NCBI GenBank assembly: GCA_002366835.1
Contig: DFBZ01000147.1
Coordinates: forward strand, 13,649-77,648
Source of the DNA: Gammaproteobacteria bacterium UBA3067
GTDB taxonomy: Bacteria; Pseudomonadota; Gammaproteobacteria; Pseudomonadales; UBA3067
DNA: 64,000 nt
Direction of reading: 5' to 3'
The notes under the pieces are model-generated. The model was given only the letters and a program-made list of their open reading frames with translations. It was not told where the DNA came from and searched no databases. Positions 3,024 through 63,838 of the stretch are shown here, one piece after another (positions within the stretch are counted from its first letter, which is position 1; the number at the start of each line of letters is the position of its first letter). The position numbers and the translations under genes were made by a program.

Positions 3024-5336
3024 ATGAATAACTTCCCCCTCGGCCCGTTTGTATTACGTCACCGCTGGCTTATTGTCATCATGACGCTACTGATGGTCGG
3101 CTTGTTTGGTTTTCAGATTCGCAACATCACCATGACAGATGATCTGAATGTATTTTTTGCCGAAGATAATCCGCAACTGCTGGCCTTTAACCGCTTTAAA
3201 GATTCCTATGGCGAAACGAAGAATGCCTATATCGCTATGGCACCTGATAACAAGAATATTTACACCCGCCAGAACCTTGCTCTGATTGAGGAGTTCACCG
3301 AAAGAGCCTGGCAGACCCCCTACTCCCACCGCGTGGACTCATTACAAAACTTTCAGCGCACCCGCGTTACTGAAGATGAGCTACAGGTCGACAATGCCTA
3401 CGAAAATGCCCATACGCTCAGCCCTGAAGCGATAGCGGATCTACGAGACTATGCAAGTAATCATGATGTATTGGCCGATAAGTTGGTGGCAAGAGACGGC
3501 TCGATCGCTGCGGTTGCGATCACCTTTAATTTAACAGATGGTGAAGGTGCGCCTGCAAAACGCCAAGAGGTGATAGATCACCTCGAAAAGTTAATGGCAG
3601 ACCTCAAGGCGACTTACCCTGGAGTGACTTTCTATGAAACTGGCGGGGTCTATGTCAACAAGGCCTTTGCTGAAGCCATGCTCAAAGACGGGCTTGCCTT
3701 AATGCCCTTGATGGTGGGCCTGATGGTTGTTTTGATGATCGCTTTCCTACGCTCTGTGGCAGGTATGTTTGCCACCATGCTGGTGGTGATCTTTTCAGCA
3801 GTCGTCGCCGTAGGGGGTGTGGTCACACTGGGCATTACAATGACAAATGTGACCGCCATGGCACCCATCGTTGTGCTCACAGTCGGGGTGGCAGATAGTG
3901 TACATATTCTTATTTCCATGTTTCAGGCCATGGGGCATGGTAAGAGCAAGGATGAAGCTATCCTGGAAACCCTGCGTATTAACCACCAACCTATATTTCT
4001 CACCAGTTTAACCACAATCATTGGCTTTTTGAGCCTGAATTTTAACGAATCCCCACCTTTCAGGGATATGGGTAATGAAGTCGCCATTGGTGTTTTAGCC
4101 GCGTACCTTCTTTCTATTCTGTTCTTACCTGCGCTTCTCAGCCTGATTCCCATCAAGGCAAGAAAGGTTAAGGATGACGACACTCCCGCCATGGAACACT
4201 TGGGTGCGCTCGTTAGCAAGCGCTACCCCTTGGTGCTTGGGGCAATGCTTGTTTTTATTGCCGGCCTCGCCTCACAAATTCCAAAACTGGAATTTAACGA
4301 TATGTTTTTGGAGTATTTCGATAAAACCATCGAGTTTCGACGTACCAGCGATTTCCTGATGGAGAATATGGTGGGAATGGTGGGAATTTCTTACGATGTT
4401 GATTCGGGGGAAGAAGGAGGGATTAATAACCCTGCCTACCTGAGTGATTTGAACAAACTCAGGCAGTGGATGCTCACGCAACACAAAGTACAGTATGTCA
4501 GCTCTTATGACGGCATTATCTTTGAGCTAAACCAAACCATGAATAATGACGATGAAAGCTTCTACCGTGCTCCAGAATCCCGTGAACTGGCCTCACAGTA
4601 CCTGCTCATGTATGAAATGTCTCTGCCTATGGGCCGGGATATTAGTAATAGCATCAGTGATGATCGCAGCCGTTCGAGCTTAAACCTGAATATCGAAAAC
4701 GCAAAGACAAGCGAAATTATCGACCTGGCGGAAAAAGTAGATGCTTGGGCAAAAGCAAATACGCCCAACCTTATCCTGTCCCCTGCTATTGGGGAGACCA
4801 TTATGTTTGCCCATATTGCCAAGCGAAATATTATCAGTATGGTGAACGGTGCTTTTCTCGCCTTATTTCTTATTTCTGTCATCCTGCTAATTTCTTTACG
4901 CAATATCAAACTGGGCGTTTTAAGTTTGGCGCCCAATGTATTGCCTCTGGTGATGGCCTTTGGCGCTTGGTCCATGCTAGTGGGAGAGCTGGGAATGTCA
5001 GGCGGCGCGGTGTTGGTCATCGCTTTAGGCATTATCGTGGATGATACCGTGCATTTTTTAAGTAAGTACCTGCGGGCTAAAAGGGAGCTGCACTTAAGTA
5101 CCCATGATGCAATTCTTTATTCTTTTCGTACTGTCGGTGTCGCCCTGTTAGTAACGTCTATCGTGCTGGTAATCGGCTTTACGGTGCTTTACGGCTCTGC
5201 ATTTAAACCCACCAAGGACATGGGCTTACTCATCTCTCTAACGGTTGCCTTCGCCTTAACGGCAACGTTTTTTATTATTCCACCGCTGCTTTTAATTATT
5301 GATAAAGCAAAATTTCGCGCTAAAAATAATAACTAA
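3024..5336 (+). CDS. RND-superfamily (MMPL/HAE3-like) exporter, paralog 1
   Basis: 770 aa with two blocks of about 6 TM helices separated by large soluble loops. Shares conserved blocks with the two other copies in this window: FFAEDNPQLLAF, WQTPYSHRVDSLQNFQ, GIIVDDTVHFLSKYLRAK. Confidence 0.8.
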   Translation: MNNFPLGPFVLRHRWLIVIMTLLMVGLFGFQIRNITMTDDLNVFFAEDNPQLLAFNRFKDSYGETKNAYIAMAPDNKNIYTRQNLALIEEFTERAWQTPYSHRVDSLQNFQRTRVTEDELQVDNAYENAHTLSPEAIADLRDYASNHDVLADKLVARDGSIAAVAITFNLTDGEGAPAKRQEVIDHLEKLMADLKATYPGVTFYETGGVYVNKAFAEAMLKDGLALMPLMVGLMVVLMIAFLRSVAGMFATMLVVIFSAVVAVGGVVTLGITMTNVTAMAPIVVLTVGVADSVHILISMFQAMGHGKSKDEAILETLRINHQPIFLTSLTTIIGFLSLNFNESPPFRDMGNEVAIGVLAAYLLSILFLPALLSLIPIKARKVKDDDTPAMEHLGALVSKRYPLVLGAMLVFIAGLASQIPKLEFNDMFLEYFDKTIEFRRTSDFLMENMVGMVGISYDVDSGEEGGINNPAYLSDLNKLRQWMLTQHKVQYVSSYDGIIFELNQTMNNDDESFYRAPESRELASQYLLMYEMSLPMGRDISNSISDDRSRSSLNLNIENAKTSEIIDLAEKVDAWAKANTPNLILSPAIGETIMFAHIAKRNIISMVNGAFLALFLISVILLISLRNIKLGVLSLAPNVLPLVMAFGAWSMLVGELGMSGGAVLVIALGIIVDDTVHFLSKYLRAKRELHLSTHDAILYSFRTVGVALLVTSIVLVIGFTVLYGSAFKPTKDMGLLISLTVAFALTATFFIIPPLLLIIDKAKFRAKNNN

Positions 5337-6868: not shown

Positions 6869-9190
6869 ATGAATCACTACGCAACAGCTCTGCTTCAAAA
6901 AAAACGTTATGGAATAATATTTTCTCTCATTTTTGTGGTTCTAGTATCCGCTGGCCTGCCCTCTTTAAAGTTTTCAAGCGACTACCGTATATTTTTTAGC
7001 GAGCAAAACCCTCAGCTCAAAGCCTTTAACGAGTTCCAGGAGCGCTTCGGATCGCAAGACAATATTATGATTGCCATAGAATCGACGGATGGCAATATAT
7101 TTCAAAAAGACATTCTCGAACTCATCCATCGATACAGCAAGCTTGCCTGGAAGACACCCTATTCCAAGCGTGTTGATTCACTGAGCAATTACCAGCACAC
7201 CGAAACAGAAAATGATGACATGATCGTAAGTGCGCTGGTAAAGGACGACTCTACTCTAACGCCACAAGACATTGAAAATATTCGATCGGTTGCACTCAAT
7301 GAACGTGAACTGGTGGGTAGGCTGGTTTCCCACCGAGGGCATGTCACTGCCATCAACATCACCATGGACCTGCCCCCCGATGCCGGTAAGGAAGAAGCCG
7401 AAGCAATGGCCTTCGCCAGAGACCTTGCTAGCCGAATTGAACAAGAAAACCCAAAGCTTAAGACCTATCTTTCTGGTCAAACCCCTTTGAACGCTGCATT
7501 TATCGAGTCTGTTATTCATGATGGTTTAACATTAATGCCACTGATGCTTTTGGTTATCATCGCAACCACCTATGCTTTCCTACGTTCTTGGGCGGGAACA
7601 GCCGGAAGTATGATAGTGGTTTCACTTTCTGTGATTACCGCATTTGGCCTGGGTGGACACCTCGGCATATTGCAAAGTAGCACGACAGGTGCCGCACCGG
7701 TGGTCATTCTGACGCTTGCGATAGCTGATTCTATTCACCTGCTATCAACATTTTTTCATGAGCTACGCCACAACAAAAGCAGACAGGAGGCAATGCGGGA
7801 ATCATTACGCATCAATATTCAGCCTATTTTTCTGACTAGCTTCACCACTGCAATTGGTTTTTTTAGCCTTAACTTTAGTGAAATACCGCCCATCAGAGAC
7901 CTTGGAAATACCGTTGCTTTAGGTGTGATTGCTGCGTTTATATTCTCTACTGTTACGCTGCCTATCTTTATGATGTTTATTCCGCTAAAAACAGAAAACC
8001 TCTCGCAAGATCTACCACACAAGCTAATGGATACGTTACATCAATGGGTAGTAAAACATTATCGGGGAATTATTATTTTTTTCGCGGTGGTGGTGCCAAT
8101 ATTTACCGCTTATATCCCGCGAATAGAATTTAATGATCTATTTGCGGAATATTTTAGCGACTCCATTGAGTTCCGCAGAGATAACGATTTTATTCTCGAA
8201 AACTTAACCGGGGTAATGGCCCTGCATTATTCAGTTGATGCAGAGTCTGCTGATGAAATATACAACCCCGCTTATCTGGAACAACTACAGCACTTTGGTG
8301 ACTGGTTTGAACAGCAACCCGAAACGCTGCATGTTGATTCATTAGCAACACTGGTAAAGCGACTAAACAAAGTTCTACATAATGATGACCCAGCTCGTTA
8401 TGCAATTCCAGATGATGCTGACGAAATTGCACAGTATATATTTTTTTATGAGCTTTCTTTGCCCTACGGATTAGACCTTAAAAACAAAATGGACGCACAT
8501 CGCAGCAGTTCGCGCTTGACTGTTACCATTAAAAATACAAAATCCAAGGATCTCATCGATCTGGATGAGCGAGCCATGGCTTGGCTGGCTACAAATGCAC
8601 CTGATCTAAAAATAAAAAGCTCGGTGGGCCCCTCGATTATGTTTTCACATATCTCTGAAAAAAACTTGGGCAGCATGATTCAGGGGCTCGTAACGGCAAT
8701 TTTTTTAATCACCATCGCGTTAATGATCTCATTAAAAAGCATCCCTCTTGGTTTACTTAGTTTAATCCCGAATATTGCACCCACCCTTATGGCCTATGGG
8801 GTATGGAGTTTATGGGTGGGTGAGATTGGCATGACCGGTGCGATAATGAGTGTTGTCGGCTTGGGTATTATCGTAGATAACACGGTACACTTTTTAAGTA
8901 AGTATCTGCGCGCACGCAAAGAACAGAATAAGTCGGCGGAAGAAGCCATTCACTATGCATTTAATACGGTGGGCATTGCACTGGGTGTAACATCTACTGT
9001 ACTTATTGTGGGATTCCTCGTATTGGTGCTATCTGCATTCGAGCTCAATGTCGTACTGGGGAAGTTGGTTGCCTTGGACTTATTTTTTTCTCTTATTATC
9101 ACTTACCTACTATTGCCTTCCCTATTACTACTTGGTGCGAAAAGACATACGAAGGACAACAAAGCACCTTCCGATTCTTCCATTTCATAA
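6869..9190 (+). CDS. RND-superfamily (MMPL/HAE3-like) exporter, paralog 2
   Basis: 773 aa with the same architecture as paralog 1. Conserved blocks: FFSEQNPQLKAF, WKTPYSKRVDSLSNYQ, GIIVDNTVHFLSKYLRAR. Confidence 0.8.
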   Translation: MNHYATALLQKKRYGIIFSLIFVVLVSAGLPSLKFSSDYRIFFSEQNPQLKAFNEFQERFGSQDNIMIAIESTDGNIFQKDILELIHRYSKLAWKTPYSKRVDSLSNYQHTETENDDMIVSALVKDDSTLTPQDIENIRSVALNERELVGRLVSHRGHVTAINITMDLPPDAGKEEAEAMAFARDLASRIEQENPKLKTYLSGQTPLNAAFIESVIHDGLTLMPLMLLVIIATTYAFLRSWAGTAGSMIVVSLSVITAFGLGGHLGILQSSTTGAAPVVILTLAIADSIHLLSTFFHELRHNKSRQEAMRESLRINIQPIFLTSFTTAIGFFSLNFSEIPPIRDLGNTVALGVIAAFIFSTVTLPIFMMFIPLKTENLSQDLPHKLMDTLHQWVVKHYRGIIIFFAVVVPIFTAYIPRIEFNDLFAEYFSDSIEFRRDNDFILENLTGVMALHYSVDAESADEIYNPAYLEQLQHFGDWFEQQPETLHVDSLATLVKRLNKVLHNDDPARYAIPDDADEIAQYIFFYELSLPYGLDLKNKMDAHRSSSRLTVTIKNTKSKDLIDLDERAMAWLATNAPDLKIKSSVGPSIMFSHISEKNLGSMIQGLVTAIFLITIALMISLKSIPLGLLSLIPNIAPTLMAYGVWSLWVGEIGMTGAIMSVVGLGIIVDNTVHFLSKYLRARKEQNKSAEEAIHYAFNTVGIALGVTSTVLIVGFLVLVLSAFELNVVLGKLVALDLFFSLIITYLLLPSLLLLGAKRHTKDNKAPSDSSIS

Positions 9191-21618: not shown

Positions 21619-21665
21619 TCCGGTTAATTTTTGAACTGGTTTATTTTTGTTCGAAATTAACCGGA
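21619..21665. promoter_or_regulatory. Perfect 12-bp inverted repeat about 100 bp upstream of the SOR-like gene; candidate operator or structured element
   Basis: TCCGGTTAATTT (21619-21630) and AAATTAACCGGA (21654-21665), separated by a 23-nt spacer. Confidence 0.35.
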
Positions 21666-21765: not shown

Positions 21766-22173
21766 ATGAATAGAAGAAATTTTATACGTGTATCGACATT
21801 AGGTGCTGCCACCGGAATGATGGCACCAACGGTTGCCTTAGCTTCCACTGTAAGTATGGCCGGTGGAGTTTATTACACTAAGGAAGCTCCAGGCCGCTGG
21901 AGTAAAAAAATTGAAAGTCATTTACCAATAATTGAAGTTTCAGGGAAAAAAATACAAGTAACAACTCCCCATGGCATGACTGGATATGATCACTATATTG
22001 TCAAGCACATGATACTAAATGATAAGTTTGAATTCATTGATGAGAAGATGTTTGACCCGACTCAGGATAAAGCCCCAATATCTCAGTTTGACCTTGGTAA
22101 TTACTCAGGTCGAATACATGTTTTGAGTGCCTGCAACAAACATGACACCTGGTTAAATATGGCTGACATATAA
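21766..22173 (+). CDS. Tat-exported superoxide-reductase-like (desulfoferrodoxin ferrous-iron-binding domain) protein
   Basis: Twin-arginine signal MNRRNFIRVSTLGAATGMMAPTVALA, with GGAG 7 nt upstream of the ATG. SOR centre-II ligand motifs are present: ESHLPIIE (compare EKHVPVIE), PHGMTGYDHYIVKH (compare HPNTTEHHIRYI) and SACNKHDTW (compare YCNIHGLW). Confidence 0.75.
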   Translation: MNRRNFIRVSTLGAATGMMAPTVALASTVSMAGGVYYTKEAPGRWSKKIESHLPIIEVSGKKIQVTTPHGMTGYDHYIVKHMILNDKFEFIDEKMFDPTQDKAPISQFDLGNYSGRIHVLSACNKHDTWLNMADI

Positions 22174-22180
22174 AACATAA

Positions 22181-22226
22181 CTAATAAGGGGGGGGGTCGC
22201 GCATTGCTGAAGCTCCCCCTTATTAG
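22181..22226. terminator. Strong bidirectional stem-loop between the convergent SOR-like and ankyrin genes
   Basis: CTAATAAGGGGG (22181-22192) pairs with CCCCCTTATTAG (22215-22226). The left arm runs into a G9 homopolymer. Confidence 0.65.
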
Positions 22227-22311
22227 TTGAATTCAAGAGTTGTTTTCTCTTAAGTAGGTCCATTCTTTTTAAGTAGTTCTAATTTACTTTATTAGGCAAC
22301 AACTGCACCCA

Positions 22312-23097
22312 TCAACGGGTGGCTTTCAGTAATTCAATAATTTTAGTATTTCCCTGGTTTTCCGCCCACATCAAGGCGGTTTTACCATTCTTGTCTTGAA
22401 TCTTTGTATCGGCACCATATAACATTAACAAATTCACTATATCGTCGTGTCCTTCATATGCGCCTGCAATTATAGCGGTCCAGCCATCTTTGTCATTTGG
22501 TATGGCATCAATATTTGCGTTGTTTTCTAATAACATTTTGGCGATCGAATAAAAACCATATTTTGATGCAAACATGAGCGATGTCCTTCCAAGTTTGTTT
22601 TTTGCATTTACATTCGCACCGCTTTTAATCAATACAGAAGCAACCTCTTCATTTCCTTCGGCAACAGAGATCATGAGCGGCGTCCATCCAATGCCGATTT
22701 GAGTATTACGAGTACTACTTGTTGAATATTCAACGTTTACCCCTGCATTGATCATCGCCTCAACCAAACGATGATCTCCAAATTTAGCCGCCGCAAACAG
22801 CAGAGATGCACTCCGTTTATTTATCTCTAATTCATAATCCATTAGAAGGCTTTGACATGCATCTTCTTCCGGTGTCTTGGCACATATCCCCGCTACTACT
22901 TGACAGTAATAATGAGCAACAAGCTGCGGGGTTTCCTTACCATCTGTCTTTGCCCTTTTTTCTGCCGATGGCATACATGCTTCATAAATCAACTGTTTAG
23001 TCGTGGGCTTACGAGGTGACTGACTAGGAGGCGCTGTTGTACAACCGCTTATTAATAGAAAAATGGATAGTGTAAAAATTAACGTGTAGTTGTTCAC
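22312..23097 (-). CDS. Ankyrin-repeat lipoprotein
   Basis: GTG start preceded by AAAGGAGAG gives MNNYTLIFTLSIFLLISGC (lipobox). At least 4 ankyrin repeats, e.g. GWTPLMISVAEGNEEVASVLIKSGANVNAKN and GKTALMWAENQGNTKIIELL. The longest ORF reaches 23142. Confidence 0.85.
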   Translation of the reverse strand: MNNYTLIFTLSIFLLISGCTTAPPSQSPRKPTTKQLIYEACMPSAEKRAKTDGKETPQLVAHYYCQVVAGICAKTPEEDACQSLLMDYELEINKRSASLLFAAAKFGDHRLVEAMINAGVNVEYSTSSTRNTQIGIGWTPLMISVAEGNEEVASVLIKSGANVNAKNKLGRTSLMFASKYGFYSIAKMLLENNANIDAIPNDKDGWTAIIAGAYEGHDDIVNLLMLYGADTKIQDKNGKTALMWAENQGNTKIIELLKATR

Positions 23098-23528: not shown

Positions 23529-23640
23529 ACGGGATAAAACGACCCAGCCTAACCGTACAGCTTCTTCGAGCCCCCCTCCTTTAATCCAAGCAACAGATTC
23601 TTCGGCATTCCCCTTTTCAGATTGTTGCCTATTTTTCTTT
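23529..23640. repeat. Imperfect direct repeat, copy B (pairs with 21419..21510)
   Basis: GGGATAAAACGACCCAGCCTAACCGTACAGC..TTCTTC..CCCCTCCT..CCTTTTCAGATTGTTGC. Lies inside a dubious 81-aa reverse ORF. Confidence 0.4.
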
Positions 23641-23967
23641 TCCCTGAATTGCTCTAGAGAAGAAAGCGTACCCGCTGCATAAAAAAAGTACTTCTGGAAG
23701 TGAGAAGCGGAATCAATCCAGTTTTCAGGCTGATTACCTAAACGGCGCAAAATTGGCGGCAAATGGCTGTAGATAGCCCCGCGCTTATCTTCTCGAAGAG
23801 TGCCCCCGCCCTATCCACCAACTCAAAATAATCCTGCCGCGTAAATGGGATCCCTAATCAAGTTCGCTCTCAAGTGGCGAAATAAAGCCCCTACAATTTT
23901 ATCCAGACCTGTATTGCTCCTTCCGCTATAATGCCGTCCCCAAGATTATTCGCTCGTAGCCAGAACC

Positions 23968-34153: not shown

Positions 34154-34510
34154 CTATTTACCGAGAAAGGATTCTTTAAGGGATTCCATCCAGATTATGG
34201 CGTCATGTGCCGACAGTTGCAGATATTCCCAAACGCGCGGGCCATTACCGGTACTATACAAAAGTACGGAGGTTCCAAGGGCGAGTAAAACGACGCCACC
34301 GAGAACAAAAGGAAAGCCAGCTTTGCTCTGGCCATCGCCCATTGTCGCAACGTCCTGCTTTGATGATTGAACAGGCTTCCGTCCTATCTTAATGGCCTTT
34401 AAATCTGCCAACACCTCAAAAAAGCCGCTATAACGCGCTTCCGGATTCAACTGCATTATTTTGAATAATGACATTCTGAAGCGGCTTTGGGAACGCATCA
34501 AACTGCGCAT
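34154..34510 (-). CDS. C-terminal continuation of the kinase gene in a shifted frame (end of kinase lobe, TM anchor, short tail)
   Basis: From ..KIMQLNPEARYSGFFEVLADL (kinase subdomain XI) through a TM helix (FPFVLGGVVLLALGTSVLLY). Only the part downstream of about 34468 looks genuinely coding. Confidence 0.55.
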   Translation of the reverse strand: MRSLMRSQSRFRMSLFKIMQLNPEARYSGFFEVLADLKAIKIGRKPVQSSKQDVATMGDGQSKAGFPFVLGGVVLLALGTSVLLYSTGNGPRVWEYLQLSAHDAIIWMESLKESFLGK

Positions 34511-35957
34511 TTGTACAGAGCTTTCCCGACTGCCACTCTGGGGGCTGCTGACTGGCCGTTAGCATTTGGTAAAACAATACGCCAGCGGCATAGACATCGG
34601 TCTTGACTGATTTCTCTTCCCCCAGGTGGTTGTACCAGTTCCCCCCCTCTTGGCCACCACCGTAATGCTCATCGAAACCAAAGTCTGATATTTTTGCCTG
34701 GCCTTTTGAAGTAAATAATATATTCCTAGGTCGCAGATTTCCGTGAATAATTTGATTCCGGTGAGCGTAATCCATTGCCTCACAGATTTGGGTGGCAATG
34801 GAAATAAAACTTTTCCAGCCAAAAGGCTTAATCAGGCGATCCTGTAAACAGCCGCCCTTTAGGTATTCCATAACGGAAATAAAGACCCGATCATTTTTAG
34901 AAACACCTTTTACCGTAACGATATTTGGGTGGTGCAGCTTATGCAGTAGCTTGCTCTCACGAAAACCAGCACTACTGTTGGTACGCTTTTTTATGACCAA
35001 TAAATCATGCTGCACTTTATCTTCAAATAGATAAACGGCACCAAATTCGTCCTCCTTGATGACGTCTAGCAGCGAAAACTTATCCTCCGCCTTGGAAACC
35101 GTCTTTTTTGCGCGTTCTTTTTGTGCTGGTGCTAAATGGGCTCCGTGCATCACCTTGAGCAACAGGTTTTTTATTTCACTGGCGGAGCGGGGCCGCTGCG
35201 ATTCATCGGGGCATAAACAACGCTCAATGACTTTATCAATAGCCTTGGGAATATTTGGGTTCTGGGTGGAGGGAAGTTCAAAACGCCCCAGCGGCAATAT
35301 ACCGGTTACCAATTCATAAAATAGTACGCCAAAGGCATAGAGATCACTTTGAACTGAAGTGTTGTCGGCCGACGCGTGTATTTCAGGTGCCATATAGGCA
35401 GCGGTCCCCATAACATCACCCACCTGGGTGTGGTGATCTTCATTTTTATTAGATGCTTGTGTTTTTTCGCAAAAGTGCGCAATACCGAAATCCAGTACAT
35501 AGGCGTGATTTTGCCGATCCATCAAAATATTTGCAGGTTTAATATCCCGATGAATCACGCCGTTATCATGAGCGTAGGCCAGAGCCTTACAAATCTGAAC
35601 GGCGATATGGATACGCTGGGATAACTTAAGATCGCCCTTTTCAATTAAGTCCTTAAGGTCGGCTCCCTTAACGTATTCCATCACAAAATAGGGTTGCCCC
35701 TTAGAGGTAATACCTCTATCAATAACATCGATAATATTAGGATGATTTAGCCGAGCGATGATAAGAGATTCCCGCTCGAAGCGCGACTTAACATCCTTTC
35801 GATCCAAAAGTGTCTTCTTGAGAACTTTTAATGCAACGGGGCGTTCTAAAGAGGTTTGCACCCCTTTATACACAGTGGCCATTCCACCGTGACCAATTCT
35901 TTTTTTGAACCTGATAACCGCCGAGATGCATAAACCTTCACTATCCATAAAGGGCAT
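34428..35957 (-). CDS. Hanks-type Ser/Thr protein kinase with tandem kinase and pseudokinase domains (frame interrupted near its 3' end)
   Basis: Domain 1 motifs: IGHGGMATVY, ALKVL, HRDIKPANIL, LDFG, YMAPE. Domain 2 motifs: LVIKK, HGNLRPRNIL (Asp replaced by Asn), SDFG. Confidence 0.85.
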   Translation of the reverse strand: MPFMDSEGLCISAVIRFKKRIGHGGMATVYKGVQTSLERPVALKVLKKTLLDRKDVKSRFERESLIIARLNHPNIIDVIDRGITSKGQPYFVMEYVKGADLKDLIEKGDLKLSQRIHIAVQICKALAYAHDNGVIHRDIKPANILMDRQNHAYVLDFGIAHFCEKTQASNKNEDHHTQVGDVMGTAAYMAPEIHASADNTSVQSDLYAFGVLFYELVTGILPLGRFELPSTQNPNIPKAIDKVIERCLCPDESQRPRSASEIKNLLLKVMHGAHLAPAQKERAKKTVSKAEDKFSLLDVIKEDEFGAVYLFEDKVQHDLLVIKKRTNSSAGFRESKLLHKLHHPNIVTVKGVSKNDRVFISVMEYLKGGCLQDRLIKPFGWKSFISIATQICEAMDYAHRNQIIHGNLRPRNILFTSKGQAKISDFGFDEHYGGGQEGGNWYNHLGEEKSVKTDVYAAGVLFYQMLTASQQPPEWQSGKLCTNAQFDAFPKPLQNVIIQNNAVESGSAL

Positions 35958-52688: not shown

Positions 52689-53483
52689 TTATCGCGCTCG
52701 GCGTAAACTTGCCTGAGAAAAGTCATCCGCCGTTTTATTTTCCTGAAACAAATACTCACTCATAATCAAATCTGTACTTCTACCATCCGTCTGATTAACC
52801 ATATTCAAATGATGTGCCCGCCAGTATTTGTCGAGATAGAGTTTATAATTGGAAATCGTTAGGCGTTTGGCATGGCTGTCTTTGCGGTCATAAAAGTCAG
52901 CCTGGAAAATACGATACTCTTTTTTATCAACCCACATTATTTGACGGGTATAGCCAGAATCAGTGCTTTTTGGAATTCTTTCAACTACAAACATTTCTGC
53001 ACCCGCCAAGTTTTCATCGCGCAGGTATTTGTAGCGATAATCATCCACCTCCTGCGGTGCCAGATCTTCATAAGCAAACTCACTACCCAAGAAGGACCCT
53101 GCTTTTGATGAACCGCTAATGCGCTTTACACGGCCCAATTTTGGCAAATATAACCATTGATCATCCTCTCGCTCGCCATGAGCGTGGGTCAGCAAGGCCG
53201 TACCACGTACCTTTTTTGGTTCTCGAAAAATAATCAGTGTTTTATCACCCTCAGTATTATCCTCCAAAACACTCTGATCCATAATACGGCGGCTTTCCTG
53301 ACCCGATGCATTGCGTAGAATCATTTCTTGACGCGCACTAAAGTCTTTGAAGCCCATATCTCGGCTATCCATTTCAACAAAAATGTTACGGCCTATCTCT
53401 TCTGGCGTTTCGGCTATCACTTGCGATGCGAAAAATAAACTCGGTAGAAAAAATAAGCTTAGACTTAATTTACGTAACATCAT
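52689..53483 (-). CDS. Outer-membrane lipoprotein-sorting (LolA-like) protein
   Basis: 264 aa with a signal peptide (..FFASQVIA). The sequence pattern matches the LolA_like partners commonly encoded after MMPL/RND exporters. The start overlaps the upstream RND gene by 14 nt. Confidence 0.7.
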   Translation of the reverse strand: MMLRKLSLSLFFLPSLFFASQVIAETPEEIGRNIFVEMDSRDMGFKDFSARQEMILRNASGQESRRIMDQSVLEDNTEGDKTLIIFREPKKVRGTALLTHAHGEREDDQWLYLPKLGRVKRISGSSKAGSFLGSEFAYEDLAPQEVDDYRYKYLRDENLAGAEMFVVERIPKSTDSGYTRQIMWVDKKEYRIFQADFYDRKDSHAKRLTISNYKLYLDKYWRAHHLNMVNQTDGRSTDLIMSEYLFQENKTADDFSQASLRRAR

Positions 53484-55794
53484 TTTCTTTATCCTTCTGA
53501 ATTATGAGTAACAAGCTTGGCAGAATAAAATAGGTAATGCCAAGAGAAATAGCCAAGGCGATGGCAGTCATCTCTCCTAAAAATTGATTCGGTTTTAAGG
53601 CTGAAAATGCCAGCACAATAAAACCCAAGGTCAAAATGCTTGAGGTCACCCCAAGTGCGGTACCAACACGTTGGAATGAGTAGTAGATAGCCTCCCTCGC
53701 ACTAAGATTCTTTTCATTTTTAGCACGGAGATATTTGCTGAGAAAATGGATGGTGTTGTCGACCACAATACCAAAAGCCACCACCACGGCCGGCGCGGCG
53801 GCAATACCTAAATACCCATTAAACATCCCCCAAAGACCAAAACCAATAACACCTGGCGCGAGATTCGGTATCAAGCTTAGCAAACCCAGTTTTATATTGC
53901 GTAATGCTAGCGCGATAATAATGGAAATAAGTCCTATAGCCAGCAAACCGCCAATGATCATAGATTGCCCATTACGTTTCCCTGCATGGCCCATCATAAC
54001 GGATGGCCCGACACCCTCTACCACACGCAGTGCAGGCAAGTTTTTCTTGGCAAACACCAAAGCGCGGGTATCCAAATCAGCAATGGCCTGAGATTCCACA
54101 TTGCCCATTGTCACCGTAACACGTGTCATGCTTTGGTTGATGTTCACCAAGTTAGTCACATCAAGGCCATAGGGAAGCGACATTTCGTACAACAGGTGAT
54201 ACTGGGCCGCTAATTCAGAATCCCGTGGCGGCTGGTAGTACAGCTCATCCCCACCGTGCATGGTGCGATTCAAACGCCGCATAATGTCACTATAGGATTC
54301 CACATGAACGACCCCAGGCTGGGCTTTATACCACTGAGTCAGTTGATCTAACTGGCGCAAGTAGTCCGGCTCAAAAATACCTTCTTCACTACCCGAGTCC
54401 ACCGCATGGTGCACCAGCATCACACCGGTAAGGTGGTCGCGAATAAAGTCCGTATCCTGGCGAAATTGCATCTTCGGGCCAAACATCTCCTGAAACAGAT
54501 CATTAAACTGATTCAAGGTTAAGCCATGGGCGGTAAACACCAGAACAAGAACAAAGACCACACTGAACTCGTTTCGACGCCGAATAGCCAAGTCGGCAAC
54601 TTTATCCATAAAACCCTGACTCTTCACCGCTGGGCTATTGGCTTTTAAAGGGAAAAAACTCAACAAGGCTGGCAGGCTGACCACCGAAAAAAAGAAAGCA
54701 AACACAATGCCCATAGAAACGATGTTACCCAGAGCATGAAAAGGAGGTGACTCACTCGTGTTCAATGATAAAAAGCCAATACCCGTAGTGAGGCTGGTAA
54801 GAAAGATTGGCTTCATATTCACTTCGAGAGATTCAATAATCGCCTCATGGCGACTTTTTCCTGCCCGAATTTCCTGAAACATTGTCACTAATATATGCAC
54901 GCTATCAGCCACCGCCAAGGTCAAAATAACCACCGGCGCGGTACCCGTCATCAAGCTTTGCTCTATCTGCAAATACCCAGACATCCCTAGGGCAGACAAC
55001 ACGGATAATATAATAACCACAGTAACGCCGATGACCGCCCAAAATGAGCGCAGAAAAAAATAGGTGACCAATAAGATTAACGCAAACATAATTGGGAACA
55101 GGGTTTTCGCGTCCACCGCCCCCCCTTCCATAAAGGACTGCCCCATCATGATTTCACCCGTAAGGTAGGTTTTCAGATGCGGGTACTTCGCTTGGGTTTG
55201 CTTCATCAAATCGCGAACGTAAGCCACTGCACTGCCCTGCTCATGGGAACCGGCCTGAGGCAAGTGCATGGTGATATTCACTGCTGCAACAGAGGCATCA
55301 CTCGCAACAATACGGTCGACAATTAAAGGCTCACTAAGGGCGATATGACGCGCTTGTTTTATCTCGCTATCAGTGAGACTGGCAGCATTCTCTACCAGGG
55401 GTTTTACCAGCAGGTCATCCCCCGTGGCATAGGTATCCTGGAAATTGGTTAGTGAATCTACCCGCTTCGAATAGGGAGTTTTCCAGGCAAGTGCCGTTAA
55501 CCACTCAATGGCCTCCAGGGTTTCACGGCTAAACACACTTTCGTTTTCTGGCGCCAGCACAATCATTATATTATCGCGCTGACCAAATATATTCTGCATC
55601 GCATCAAAAGCGATTAGCTGAGGATAGTCTTCACTGAACATGACTCGATAATCAGCCGTCACCTTGATTTTCGGTAAACCCATCGCGCAGGCAACAGCAA
55701 TCAGAACAGAGGCGAGTAACACCAAATAGCGAAAACGAAGAATAAACTCTGCGAAATAACGAACGGAGAAAAACGATGTTTCATTTGCTCTCAT
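53470..55794 (-). CDS. RND-superfamily (MMPL/HAE3-like) exporter, paralog 3
   Basis: 774 aa. Conserved blocks: MFSEDYPQLIAF, WKTPYSKRVDSLTNFQ, GIVVDNTIHFLSKYLRAK. Confidence 0.8.
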   Translation of the reverse strand: MRANETSFFSVRYFAEFILRFRYLVLLASVLIAVACAMGLPKIKVTADYRVMFSEDYPQLIAFDAMQNIFGQRDNIMIVLAPENESVFSRETLEAIEWLTALAWKTPYSKRVDSLTNFQDTYATGDDLLVKPLVENAASLTDSEIKQARHIALSEPLIVDRIVASDASVAAVNITMHLPQAGSHEQGSAVAYVRDLMKQTQAKYPHLKTYLTGEIMMGQSFMEGGAVDAKTLFPIMFALILLVTYFFLRSFWAVIGVTVVIILSVLSALGMSGYLQIEQSLMTGTAPVVILTLAVADSVHILVTMFQEIRAGKSRHEAIIESLEVNMKPIFLTSLTTGIGFLSLNTSESPPFHALGNIVSMGIVFAFFFSVVSLPALLSFFPLKANSPAVKSQGFMDKVADLAIRRRNEFSVVFVLVLVFTAHGLTLNQFNDLFQEMFGPKMQFRQDTDFIRDHLTGVMLVHHAVDSGSEEGIFEPDYLRQLDQLTQWYKAQPGVVHVESYSDIMRRLNRTMHGGDELYYQPPRDSELAAQYHLLYEMSLPYGLDVTNLVNINQSMTRVTVTMGNVESQAIADLDTRALVFAKKNLPALRVVEGVGPSVMMGHAGKRNGQSMIIGGLLAIGLISIIIALALRNIKLGLLSLIPNLAPGVIGFGLWGMFNGYLGIAAAPAVVVAFGIVVDNTIHFLSKYLRAKNEKNLSAREAIYYSFQRVGTALGVTSSILTLGFIVLAFSALKPNQFLGEMTAIALAISLGITYFILPSLLLIIQKDKENDVT

Positions 55795-63571: not shown

Positions 63572-63838
63572 TTAGCTTAGCCTGCCTGAGGAGCTATTGT
63601 AACCGTCTTCCATAATCAATTTTTTGGCCTTTTCAATATCAAGCTCTTCTATCGGCAAGCTTAAATAATAGGGCAAAGACACAGCGCTCTCACTCAGCTG
63701 GACAAGCTTACCCTCTTCTAATCGCTCAATACCTGAGTGCAACATCTTCTCCAAATTAACCGGAGCTTGGTGATATTGCTTGCTCATAAAGTCGATCATT
63801 TGCTGAATTGTATGCTGGCCATCAGCGAGCGCGACCAC
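63572..63838 (-). CDS. PqqD-like small protein (possibly 5'-truncated)
   Basis: LADGQHTIQQMIDFMSKQYHQAPVNLEKMLHSGIERLEEGKLVQL follows the PqqD-family pattern (dG.ht..ei......y......v..dv..fl..L...glv). The upstream frame is broken by stop codons. Confidence 0.4.
   Translation of the reverse strand: MVALADGQHTIQQMIDFMSKQYHQAPVNLEKMLHSGIERLEEGKLVQLSESAVSLPYYLSLPIEELDIEKAKKLIMEDGYNSSSGRLS

Follow-up and report, generated by a model that had tools for sequence, protein, structure and literature searches.

In the present study, we analysed a window of 64,000 nucleotides (nt) from Gammaproteobacteria bacterium UBA3067 (contig DFBZ01000147.1), in which the gene for a superoxide reductase (SOR)-like protein of 135 amino acids (aa) lies beside the gene for a 261-aa ankyrin-repeat lipoprotein. 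These are probably two independent accessory genes which converge on a shared hairpin in an islet that is low in guanine plus cytosine (GC) and variable between strains; the first belongs by its architecture to the TAT-SOR class, named for its twin-arginine (Tat) signal, and the second encodes an ankyrin lipoprotein with a four-cysteine (4-Cys) domain. The simplest reading is that they are neighbours by their history of insertion and not by function.

Arrangement of the two genes

The SOR-like open reading frame (ORF) on the plus strand and the ankyrin ORF on the minus strand are both found where an earlier note on this DNA had placed them, and their boundaries are the same in gene calls on three identical metagenome contigs. 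The SOR-like gene starts with an ATG that has GGAG 7 nt upstream, and the ankyrin ORF has a GTG start codon with AAGGAG in front of it. The two genes are convergent and not co-oriented, and are separated by 138 nt. In this interval a stem-loop was found with a free energy of -31.4 kcal/mol on the plus strand (z = -4.7) and -26.3 kcal/mol on the minus strand (z = -4.4), which is probably a bidirectional terminator common to both genes. Since the genes converge and a 17-bp stem-loop stands between them, they are read as separate transcription units. The Rfam scan of the whole 64-kb window gave no matches. The features of the locus are as follows.

21766-22173, plus strand: SOR-like (Tat-SOR-type) gene, 135 aa, with a single desulfoferrodoxin Fe-binding (centre II) domain
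21766-21843, plus strand: predicted twin-arginine signal peptide, aa 1-26 (MNRRNFIR...VALA/S), from motif and conservation
22312-23097, minus strand: ankyrin-repeat lipoprotein gene, 261 aa, with lipobox LISGC, 4-Cys N-terminal domain and ankyrin repeats
22178-22228, no strand: stem-loop between the convergent genes, with 14-nt perfect arms (22179-22192 and 22215-22228) extending to 17 bp
21619-21665, no strand: inverted repeat or hairpin, 100 nt upstream of the SOR-like start codon
21338-23855, no strand: low-GC strain-variable islet between the aldose-1-epimerase-like gene and the DapC-like aminotransferase gene, containing both genes
23552-23854, minus strand: relic (C-terminal fragment) of a 362-aa gene, from tblastn and blastn against L093

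Co-occurrence of the two gene families

The earlier note had joined the two genes into one periplasmic module for oxidative stress or metal handling, in which the ankyrin protein would support the redox enzyme as AnkB supports KatB in Pseudomonas aeruginosa. In favour of such a module, the genes are adjacent, both products are predicted to be exported, and the arrangement is kept in contigs of the same strain. We therefore set against it the gene context of relatives. The relatives were collected by scanning one genome per GTDB species, and 236 species carry a relative of the SOR-like protein; the loci analysed from the SOR side are the best 80 of these 236 species, each with a flank of up to 6 kb on either side. 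An ankyrin gene was present within this distance in one of the 80 species-level loci, L005, as judged by tblastn with the ankyrin protein and by clustering of all ORFs. At this distant locus an exported ankyrin gene also converges on the Tat-SOR gene, about 1.2 kb downstream of it, and this speaks for a possible loose association. However, the L005 protein has a plain signal peptide, lacks both the 4-Cys domain and the lipobox, and resembles our ankyrin protein at the level of the repeats only (35% over 109 residues); it is not an ortholog. A frequency of 1/80 is roughly the chance level for a rare repeat family. Among the relatives 76-79% identical that have readable flanks, no ankyrin neighbour was found, and the Ank_2 family occurs in one of 137 neighbour clusters. 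From the ankyrin side, the three ortholog loci with context (44-57% identity) lie in unrelated surroundings, and neither tblastn nor hmmsearch with the family profile revealed a SOR-like ORF in any of them. In addition, the cargo at this hot spot differs in sister strains, and the strong hairpin stands between the convergent genes. Because the two families do not occur together across genomes, an outcome that the earlier note itself had named as counting against the pair, the module is not supported; the co-occurrence test already largely refutes it, and we regard it as very improbable.

The katB-ankB analogy is likewise not supported. In the passages that cite Ochsner et al. (2000) (PMC8466533, PMC12475218), katB-ankB of P. 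aeruginosa is described as an OxyR-regulated unit of a catalase and a periplasmic ankyrin protein. The present locus is like it in that the gene for an exported ankyrin-repeat protein lies beside the gene for an antioxidant-type metalloenzyme. Unlike that single regulated unit, the genes here converge on a hairpin which separates them, and their association is not conserved. The claim that set this finding apart, a module of SOR and ankyrin protein, fails, the result for the window is mostly a corrected annotation, and the remaining interest is in the protein class and not in the locus.

The ankyrin lipoprotein

The description of the second gene as a lipobox-anchored ankyrin-repeat protein was upheld. 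The protein matches Ank_2 (PF12796) with 171 bits (E = 5.4e-51) and Ank (PF00023) with E = 4.5e-31, each over four stretches. Its N-terminus reads MNNYTLIFTLSIFLLIS-G-C19, and the lipobox L-I-S-G-C fits the pattern [LVI][ASTVI][GAS]C; Lys and Arg are lacking from the n-region, an atypical feature for a lipoprotein. Full-length orthologs are rare, at only about 10 clusters in 5.8 billion. The lipobox Cys is retained in the four closest orthologs, and a plain signal peptide is present instead in four more distant ones. Residues 20-95 have no Pfam match and hold four cysteines (C41, C65, C72 and C81) that are invariant among the orthologs, a pattern consistent with two disulfides in an exported protein. 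Most simply, this lipoprotein would be unrelated accessory cargo, a eukaryote-like repeat protein comparable to the Sel1 protein of the sister strains.

Fold and metal site of the SOR-like protein

By its sequence and its predicted model, the SOR-like protein is a relative of the iron superoxide reductases, with a SOR fold and a complete centre II ligand set. The hidden Markov model (HMM) of the desulfoferrodoxin Fe-binding domain, PF01880, matched it with 24.0 bits against a cut-off of 22.2 (E = 5.7e-5), a narrow margin, and matched 78 of the 82 relatives at E <= 0.01. These 82 sequences are the close relatives of the protein; a separate set of 62 diverse relatives, at most 50% identical to each other, was also used. 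The protein has no domain besides the signal and the centre II domain. In phmmer and profile alignments, its five Fe(His)4Cys ligands H52, H69, H76, C123 and H126 fall on the same positions as those of the Treponema pallidum SOR (1Y07), and all five are invariant in the 82 close and the 62 diverse relatives. The motifs which carry them are ESH52LP, H69-x6-H76-Y-I and C123-N-K-H126-D-T-W. Of the three centre II motifs that had been described for this protein, xxHxP and C-N-x-H-x-x-W are present as given; the second is H-x6-H and not H-x5-H, and the x6 spacing is found in 82/82 members of the clade.

The AlphaFold2 (AF2) model, built on the 82-sequence alignment, had a mean predicted local distance difference test score (pLDDT) of 81.7, with the mature domain above 90 and the signal-peptide region below 50, as is expected for a signal peptide. 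When this model was compared with the PDB by Foldseek, ranks 1-26 were all SORs, with a best E of 2e-6; they include the proteins of Ignicoccus hospitalis, Giardia, T. pallidum, Nanoarchaeum, Archaeoglobus, Desulfoarculus and Pyrococcus. The assignment to the desulfoferrodoxin family, for which the earlier note had pointed to an HMM search, therefore holds, as PF01880 is above its cut-off, the ligands align with those of 1Y07 and the fold matches SORs. Family members carry the labels "superoxide reductase" or "desulfoferrodoxin family protein" at JGI and NCBI.

Signal peptide and export

The N-terminus of the SOR-like protein, MNRRNFIRVSTLGAATGMMAPTVALA followed by S, consists of N-R-R-N-F-I-R, an uncharged and weakly hydrophobic h-region of 18 residues, and an A-L-A/S cleavage site. 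It fits the Tat consensus S/T-R-R-x-F-L-K, with an AxA site at its end. Of the 82 relatives, 77 carry the twin-arginine pair as RR and the others as KR or RK, F6 is kept in 80, and the h-region is also kept; the motif RR-x-F-[ILV] is present in 82/82 when the KR and RK variants are counted. RR signals are found in almost all of the diverse representatives shown, some of them as Tat-lipoprotein signals, and one family member is named a twin-arginine signal protein at NCBI. The earlier note had called the Tat signal clear. The motif and its conservation in 82 relatives agree with this, but the curated Tat HMMs were below cut-off for our protein, with PF10518 at 15.4 against 22.7 and TIGR01409 at 13.9 against 16.7, and PF10518 reached E <= 0.01 in only 7/82 relatives. 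Since these models are sub-threshold, the Tat call rests on motif and conservation. On these grounds the SOR-like protein is probably exported to the periplasm. It would fold and load iron in the cytoplasm, be exported by the Tat route and be cleaved after ALA26.

Relation to known superoxide reductases

The combination of a Tat signal with a centre II domain only was defined as the TAT-SOR class in SORGOdb (Lucchetti-Miganeh et al. 2011, PMC3116461), where seven TAT-SORs were predicted, all in anaerobes and including those of Desulfovibrio salexigens, Desulfuromonas acetoxidans and Geobacter. In 2023, a TAT-1Fe-SOR with high transcript levels was described from an aerobic, uncultured Sulfurimonas of hydrothermal plumes, Sulfurimonas pluma, and periplasmic superoxide scavenging was proposed for it (PMC10066037). 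From its architecture, the SOR-like protein is a member of this already catalogued class, and the novelty which the earlier note had implied for a periplasmic SOR is withdrawn in view of these two reports. Our protein has the same architecture as the TAT-SOR class and the S. pluma protein, namely a Tat signal and one centre II domain, and the same presumed periplasmic location. Both the class and the present clade are known from sequence alone, to which transcript abundance is added for S. pluma; our full-text literature searches found no biochemical characterisation of the TAT-SOR class.

The SORGOdb examples are from anaerobes, whereas the present clade is from aerobic or facultative Gammaproteobacteria, and the two are likened here by architecture and not by sequence. 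The sole link between them is a distant member, P0190, which the clade profile retrieves with E = 1e-20 and which groups with "desulfoferrodoxin family" proteins of Thermodesulfobacteriota and Latescibacterota. Because P0190 branches with Thermodesulfobacteriota, the sequences are consistent with one broad exported family that also takes in the original anaerobe examples. In contrast to the H-x6-H of this clade, the spacing is x5 in exported members at a greater distance.

In comparison with the class II 1Fe-SORs or neelaredoxins (Pyrococcus furiosus 1DO6, Archaeoglobus fulgidus 4BFF, I. hospitalis 4BK8, Giardia 4D7P), the predicted structure is the same single-domain beta-sandwich, with target-normalised Foldseek template modelling (TM) scores of 0.55-0.75. 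The four His and one Cys come in the same order and C-N-x-H-x-x-W is common to both. In sequence, matches with solved SORs have E-values of only about 0.02. The class II enzymes are cytoplasmic and have no signal peptide, while our protein has a Tat-type signal. This clade has one residue more between the second and third His than the class II 1Fe-SORs, and it reads K-K-[VIA]-G-G-H-L-P in place of the canonical E-K-H-x-P loop. Furthermore, the Gly of canonical SORs (CNxHG) is replaced by D127, and the clade has a further invariant His, H81. The clade together with the wider exported family conserves G43, W45, K48, T67, M71, H81, S121 and D127, the 62 representatives less than 50% identical included. 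At E <= 1e-3 the clade profile retrieves 346 clusters (50% identity) out of 1.84 billion representatives. Judged by these sequences, the exported clade is a compact subfamily, well separated from canonical SORs.

Possible function

In the canonical E-K-H-x-P loop, the Glu is the sixth ligand and the Lys is catalytic. The window protein has E50-S51-H52 at this place. The protein would reduce superoxide to H2O2 in the periplasm at its solvent-exposed Fe(II)(His)4Cys site, and the oxidised site would be re-reduced by a periplasmic donor, a c-type cytochrome or a cupredoxin. K48, at position -4 from H52, is invariant in the clade within a conserved P-G-R-W-x-K-K motif, and it might supply a positive charge or a proton relay in place of the canonical Lys. 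By analogy such a functional replacement is plausible, because in the I. hospitalis enzyme a nearby Lys, a few residues upstream, takes over this part; SOR variants at the Lys or Glu position remain active. Crystal structures also exist of natural SORs in which the usual Lys or Glu is substituted, among them that of I. hospitalis with T24 at the Lys position (T24K and E23A variants in the PDB list), and the Nanoarchaeum equitans SOR is in the PDB match list as well.

Several findings weigh against a superoxide reductase at work in the periplasm. Besides the sub-threshold Tat models mentioned above, the similarity to characterised SORs is marginal: the match to PDB sequences has an E of about 0.02, and the stricter NCBIfam SOR models stay far below cut-off (TIGR00332, 15.8 against 61.9; TIGR00320, 17.2 against 146.9). 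The residue before H52 is never Lys in the 82 sequences (G in 66, S in 10, others in the rest), and the canonical Lys is thus absent in 82/82. The Glu position of the loop holds E in 4/82 and another residue in 78/82. No periplasmic electron donor was suggested by the gene context in the Pfam census of 137 neighbour clusters, and the literature search gave no data on activity, metal content or localisation for any family member.

The loss of the canonical Lys in all 82 sequences and of the Glu in most of them also favours a different explanation, according to which the protein keeps the SOR fold and metal site but does another periplasmic job, such as electron transfer, Fe(II) binding or sensing, or peroxide or nitric oxide (NO) chemistry, with the Fe(His)4Cys centre used together with K48, H81 and D127. 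The conservation of W45, K48, H81 and D127 even across representatives below 50% identity fits with it, as does the clear separation from canonical SORs, with only 346 clusters reached by the clade profile. It is further favoured by tandem arrays of 2-8 domains in exported proteins, which resemble multi-centre redox proteins more than a scavenging enzyme. On the other hand, the complete ligand set and the open-site architecture, both retained, are the main determinants of SOR chemistry; natural SORs substituted at the same positions have been crystallised, and such variants remain active; and annotation pipelines name the family members superoxide reductase, by homology only. We hold this explanation to be rather unlikely, and prefer to read the SOR-like protein as a member of the TAT-SOR class.

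The tandem arrays are an observation in their own right. Exported proteins with 2 to about 8 tandem SOR-like domains were found as P0121, P0122, P0129, P0131, P0140, P0161, P0166, P0228 and L097:6001-7530, and several of them have Tat-lipoprotein signals. The repeats mostly keep G-K-x-x-x-H-x-P, H-x-M-x-x-x-H-[YFW]-I and C-N-x-H-x-x-W, and because most repeats keep these three motifs, the proteins would be multi-iron extracytoplasmic proteins. We know of no description of such arrays. The gene context of P0121, which has four tandem domains, gave nothing informative. It could be supposed that the exported SOR-like proteins with K(-4), H81 and D127, the single-domain forms and the Tat-lipoproteins of 2-8 domains together, form a functionally distinct extracytoplasmic iron-enzyme family, which would either shield periplasm-facing oxygenases and respiratory chains from superoxide, with electrons from cytochromes or cupredoxins, or carry out chemistry other than the reduction of superoxide; from the sequences at hand this is a tentative idea and an unlikely one. 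The single-domain form is widespread in aerobic methane and hydrocarbon oxidisers.

If the Tat-SORs are active, aerobic or microaerophilic Gammaproteobacteria such as methanotrophs and hydrocarbon degraders would remove periplasmic superoxide by iron without regenerating O2. This would be an iron-based route alongside Cu,Zn superoxide dismutase (SOD), or replacing it, for which some periplasmic carrier would have to supply the electrons. The characterisation of one Tat-SOR would be useful, as the class was catalogued in 2011 and the textbook catalytic Lys is absent from its members here.

Distribution and gene context of relatives

The best 80 of the 236 species are almost all Gammaproteobacteria. 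The carriers among them include many Methylococcales (Methylobacter, Methylovulum, Methylomonas), Cycloclasticus, Marinobacter nauticus, Ferrimonas, Photobacterium, Porticoccus and Cellvibrionales. The relatives of the clade are thus mostly in aerobic or facultative Gammaproteobacteria, which agrees with the aerobic setting that had been supposed for the SOR-like protein.

Very diverse gene contexts have been described for sor genes (PMC3116461). In the present set, the closest relatives with usable flanks (L085-L088, 79% identical) lie between a gene for a 155-aa cyclic nucleotide monophosphate (cNMP)-binding protein and a methyltransferase gene, and L084 (76% identical) has a different context again. 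In the Pfam census of the 137 unique neighbour clusters, covering two genes on either side, no family occurred in more than 4 clusters, and nothing recurrent appeared as a conserved partner besides lipopolysaccharide (LPS) glycosyltransferases in Methylococcales.

Two lineage-specific neighbours were observed. The 155-aa ORF of L085-L088 (4427-4894 in L086) is also found in L001 (L001:4142-4606), in each case about 107 nt upstream of the Tat-SOR gene and in the same orientation. It is a cNMP-binding-domain protein by annotation in L085-L088 only, and the L001 ORF has no annotation. The window lacks this ORF, which might act as a regulator or partner of Tat-SOR in the L085-L088/L001 lineage (SOR 76-79% identical). 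In about 25 Methylococcales loci, among them L026:3054-5950, the Tat-SOR gene follows a conserved co-oriented block. This block encodes a 204-aa exported protein, a 310-aa cupredoxin-like protein (H-C-x4-H-M, weak Cu-oxidase_2 match), a VTT/DedA-like membrane protein and a 261-aa membrane protein without Pfam match. As it occurs in Methylococcales only, we set it aside as a conserved partner; it may reflect lineage synteny and nothing more, or point to a copper protein as electron donor in the periplasm.

The islet and its history

Between about 21.3 and 23.5 kb the GC content is as low as 0.37-0.41, while the flanks have 0.47-0.53; the value is 0.392 in the SOR-like gene, 0.408 in the ankyrin gene and 0.459 in the whole window. 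For comparison, contigs with a NhaA at least 90% identical (L093-L096) were taken as sister strains. The nucleotide homology of the window to these contigs ends at the stop codon of the epimerase-like gene (21336). After this gene the sister strains carry a 131-aa protein, a Sel1-repeat protein and a 362-aa protein, or a Peptidase_C70-like protein, and the contigs then break. A relic of the 362-aa gene, intact at L093:10514-11602, was found in the window: residues 279-355 of the L093 protein match 23801-23571 at 79% identity (tblastn), residues 261-362 match more weakly, and the nucleotide identity is 82% over 309 nt (blastn). This relic, at 23552-23854, marks the right edge of the strain-variable hot spot downstream of the epimerase-like gene. 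L082, whose SOR and ankyrin genes are identical to those of the window, departs from it at about 23649. Terminal repeats bounding the islet were searched for, and nothing convincing was found.

The region is regarded as variable, since its GC content drops, a gene relic is present and the sister strains carry other cargo, and its simplest reading is a recombination hot spot which collects accessory genes, including those for eukaryote-like repeat proteins (ankyrin, Sel1). In the sister lineage, the Tat-SOR gene is at a different locus; L087 and L093 are from the same sample. In Cycloclasticus the Tat-SOR gene also adjoins a DapC-like gene, but in the opposite orientation and behind a DUF2064 gene.

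The upstream inverted repeat

The perfect 12-bp inverted repeat which the earlier note had seen upstream of the SOR-like gene is real. Its arms are TCCGGTTAATTT at 21619-21630 and AAATTAACCGGA at 21654-21665, and it extends to a hairpin of about 17 bp (-20.1 kcal/mol, z = -4.05). Its proposed role as the operator of a stress-responsive regulator controlling the SOR-like gene is another matter. A perfect 12-bp repeat in an intergenic region of 428 nt is unlikely by chance (about 1e-3 is estimated for a 12-mer pair within 40 nt), and it lies 100 nt upstream of the start codon. However, outside the contigs of the same strain (L081-L083) no homolog has the repeat upstream; the 23-nt spacer is long for a dimeric operator; the repeat folds into a stable hairpin, the first half of which was picked by the terminator scan; and no convincing sigma-70 promoter adjoins it. 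Moreover, it stands at the edge of the inserted islet and may be an insertion scar or a terminator. An operator at this place is therefore considered quite doubtful. A third exact copy of the 12-mer TCCGGTTAATTT is at 63753-63764 on the minus strand of the window, without an inverted partner, where about 0.01 chance copies are expected in 64 kb.

Other genes in the window

Genes for pyruvate dehydrogenase E1 and E2 are in the window, as identified by synteny with the Pfam-labelled L093, and the window is similar to the genome of a marine gammaproteobacterium. At 34428-35957 on the minus strand, a 509-aa protein is encoded with a eukaryote-type protein kinase domain, for which the Pkinase match (E = 1e-80, 271 bits) is unusually high for a bacterial Ser/Thr kinase. 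In addition, three paralogous transporters of the resistance-nodulation-division (RND) type with MMPL or sterol-sensing domains, each of about 770 aa, are encoded within the 64 kb, at 3024-5336 and 6869-9190 on the plus strand and at 53470-55794 on the minus strand.

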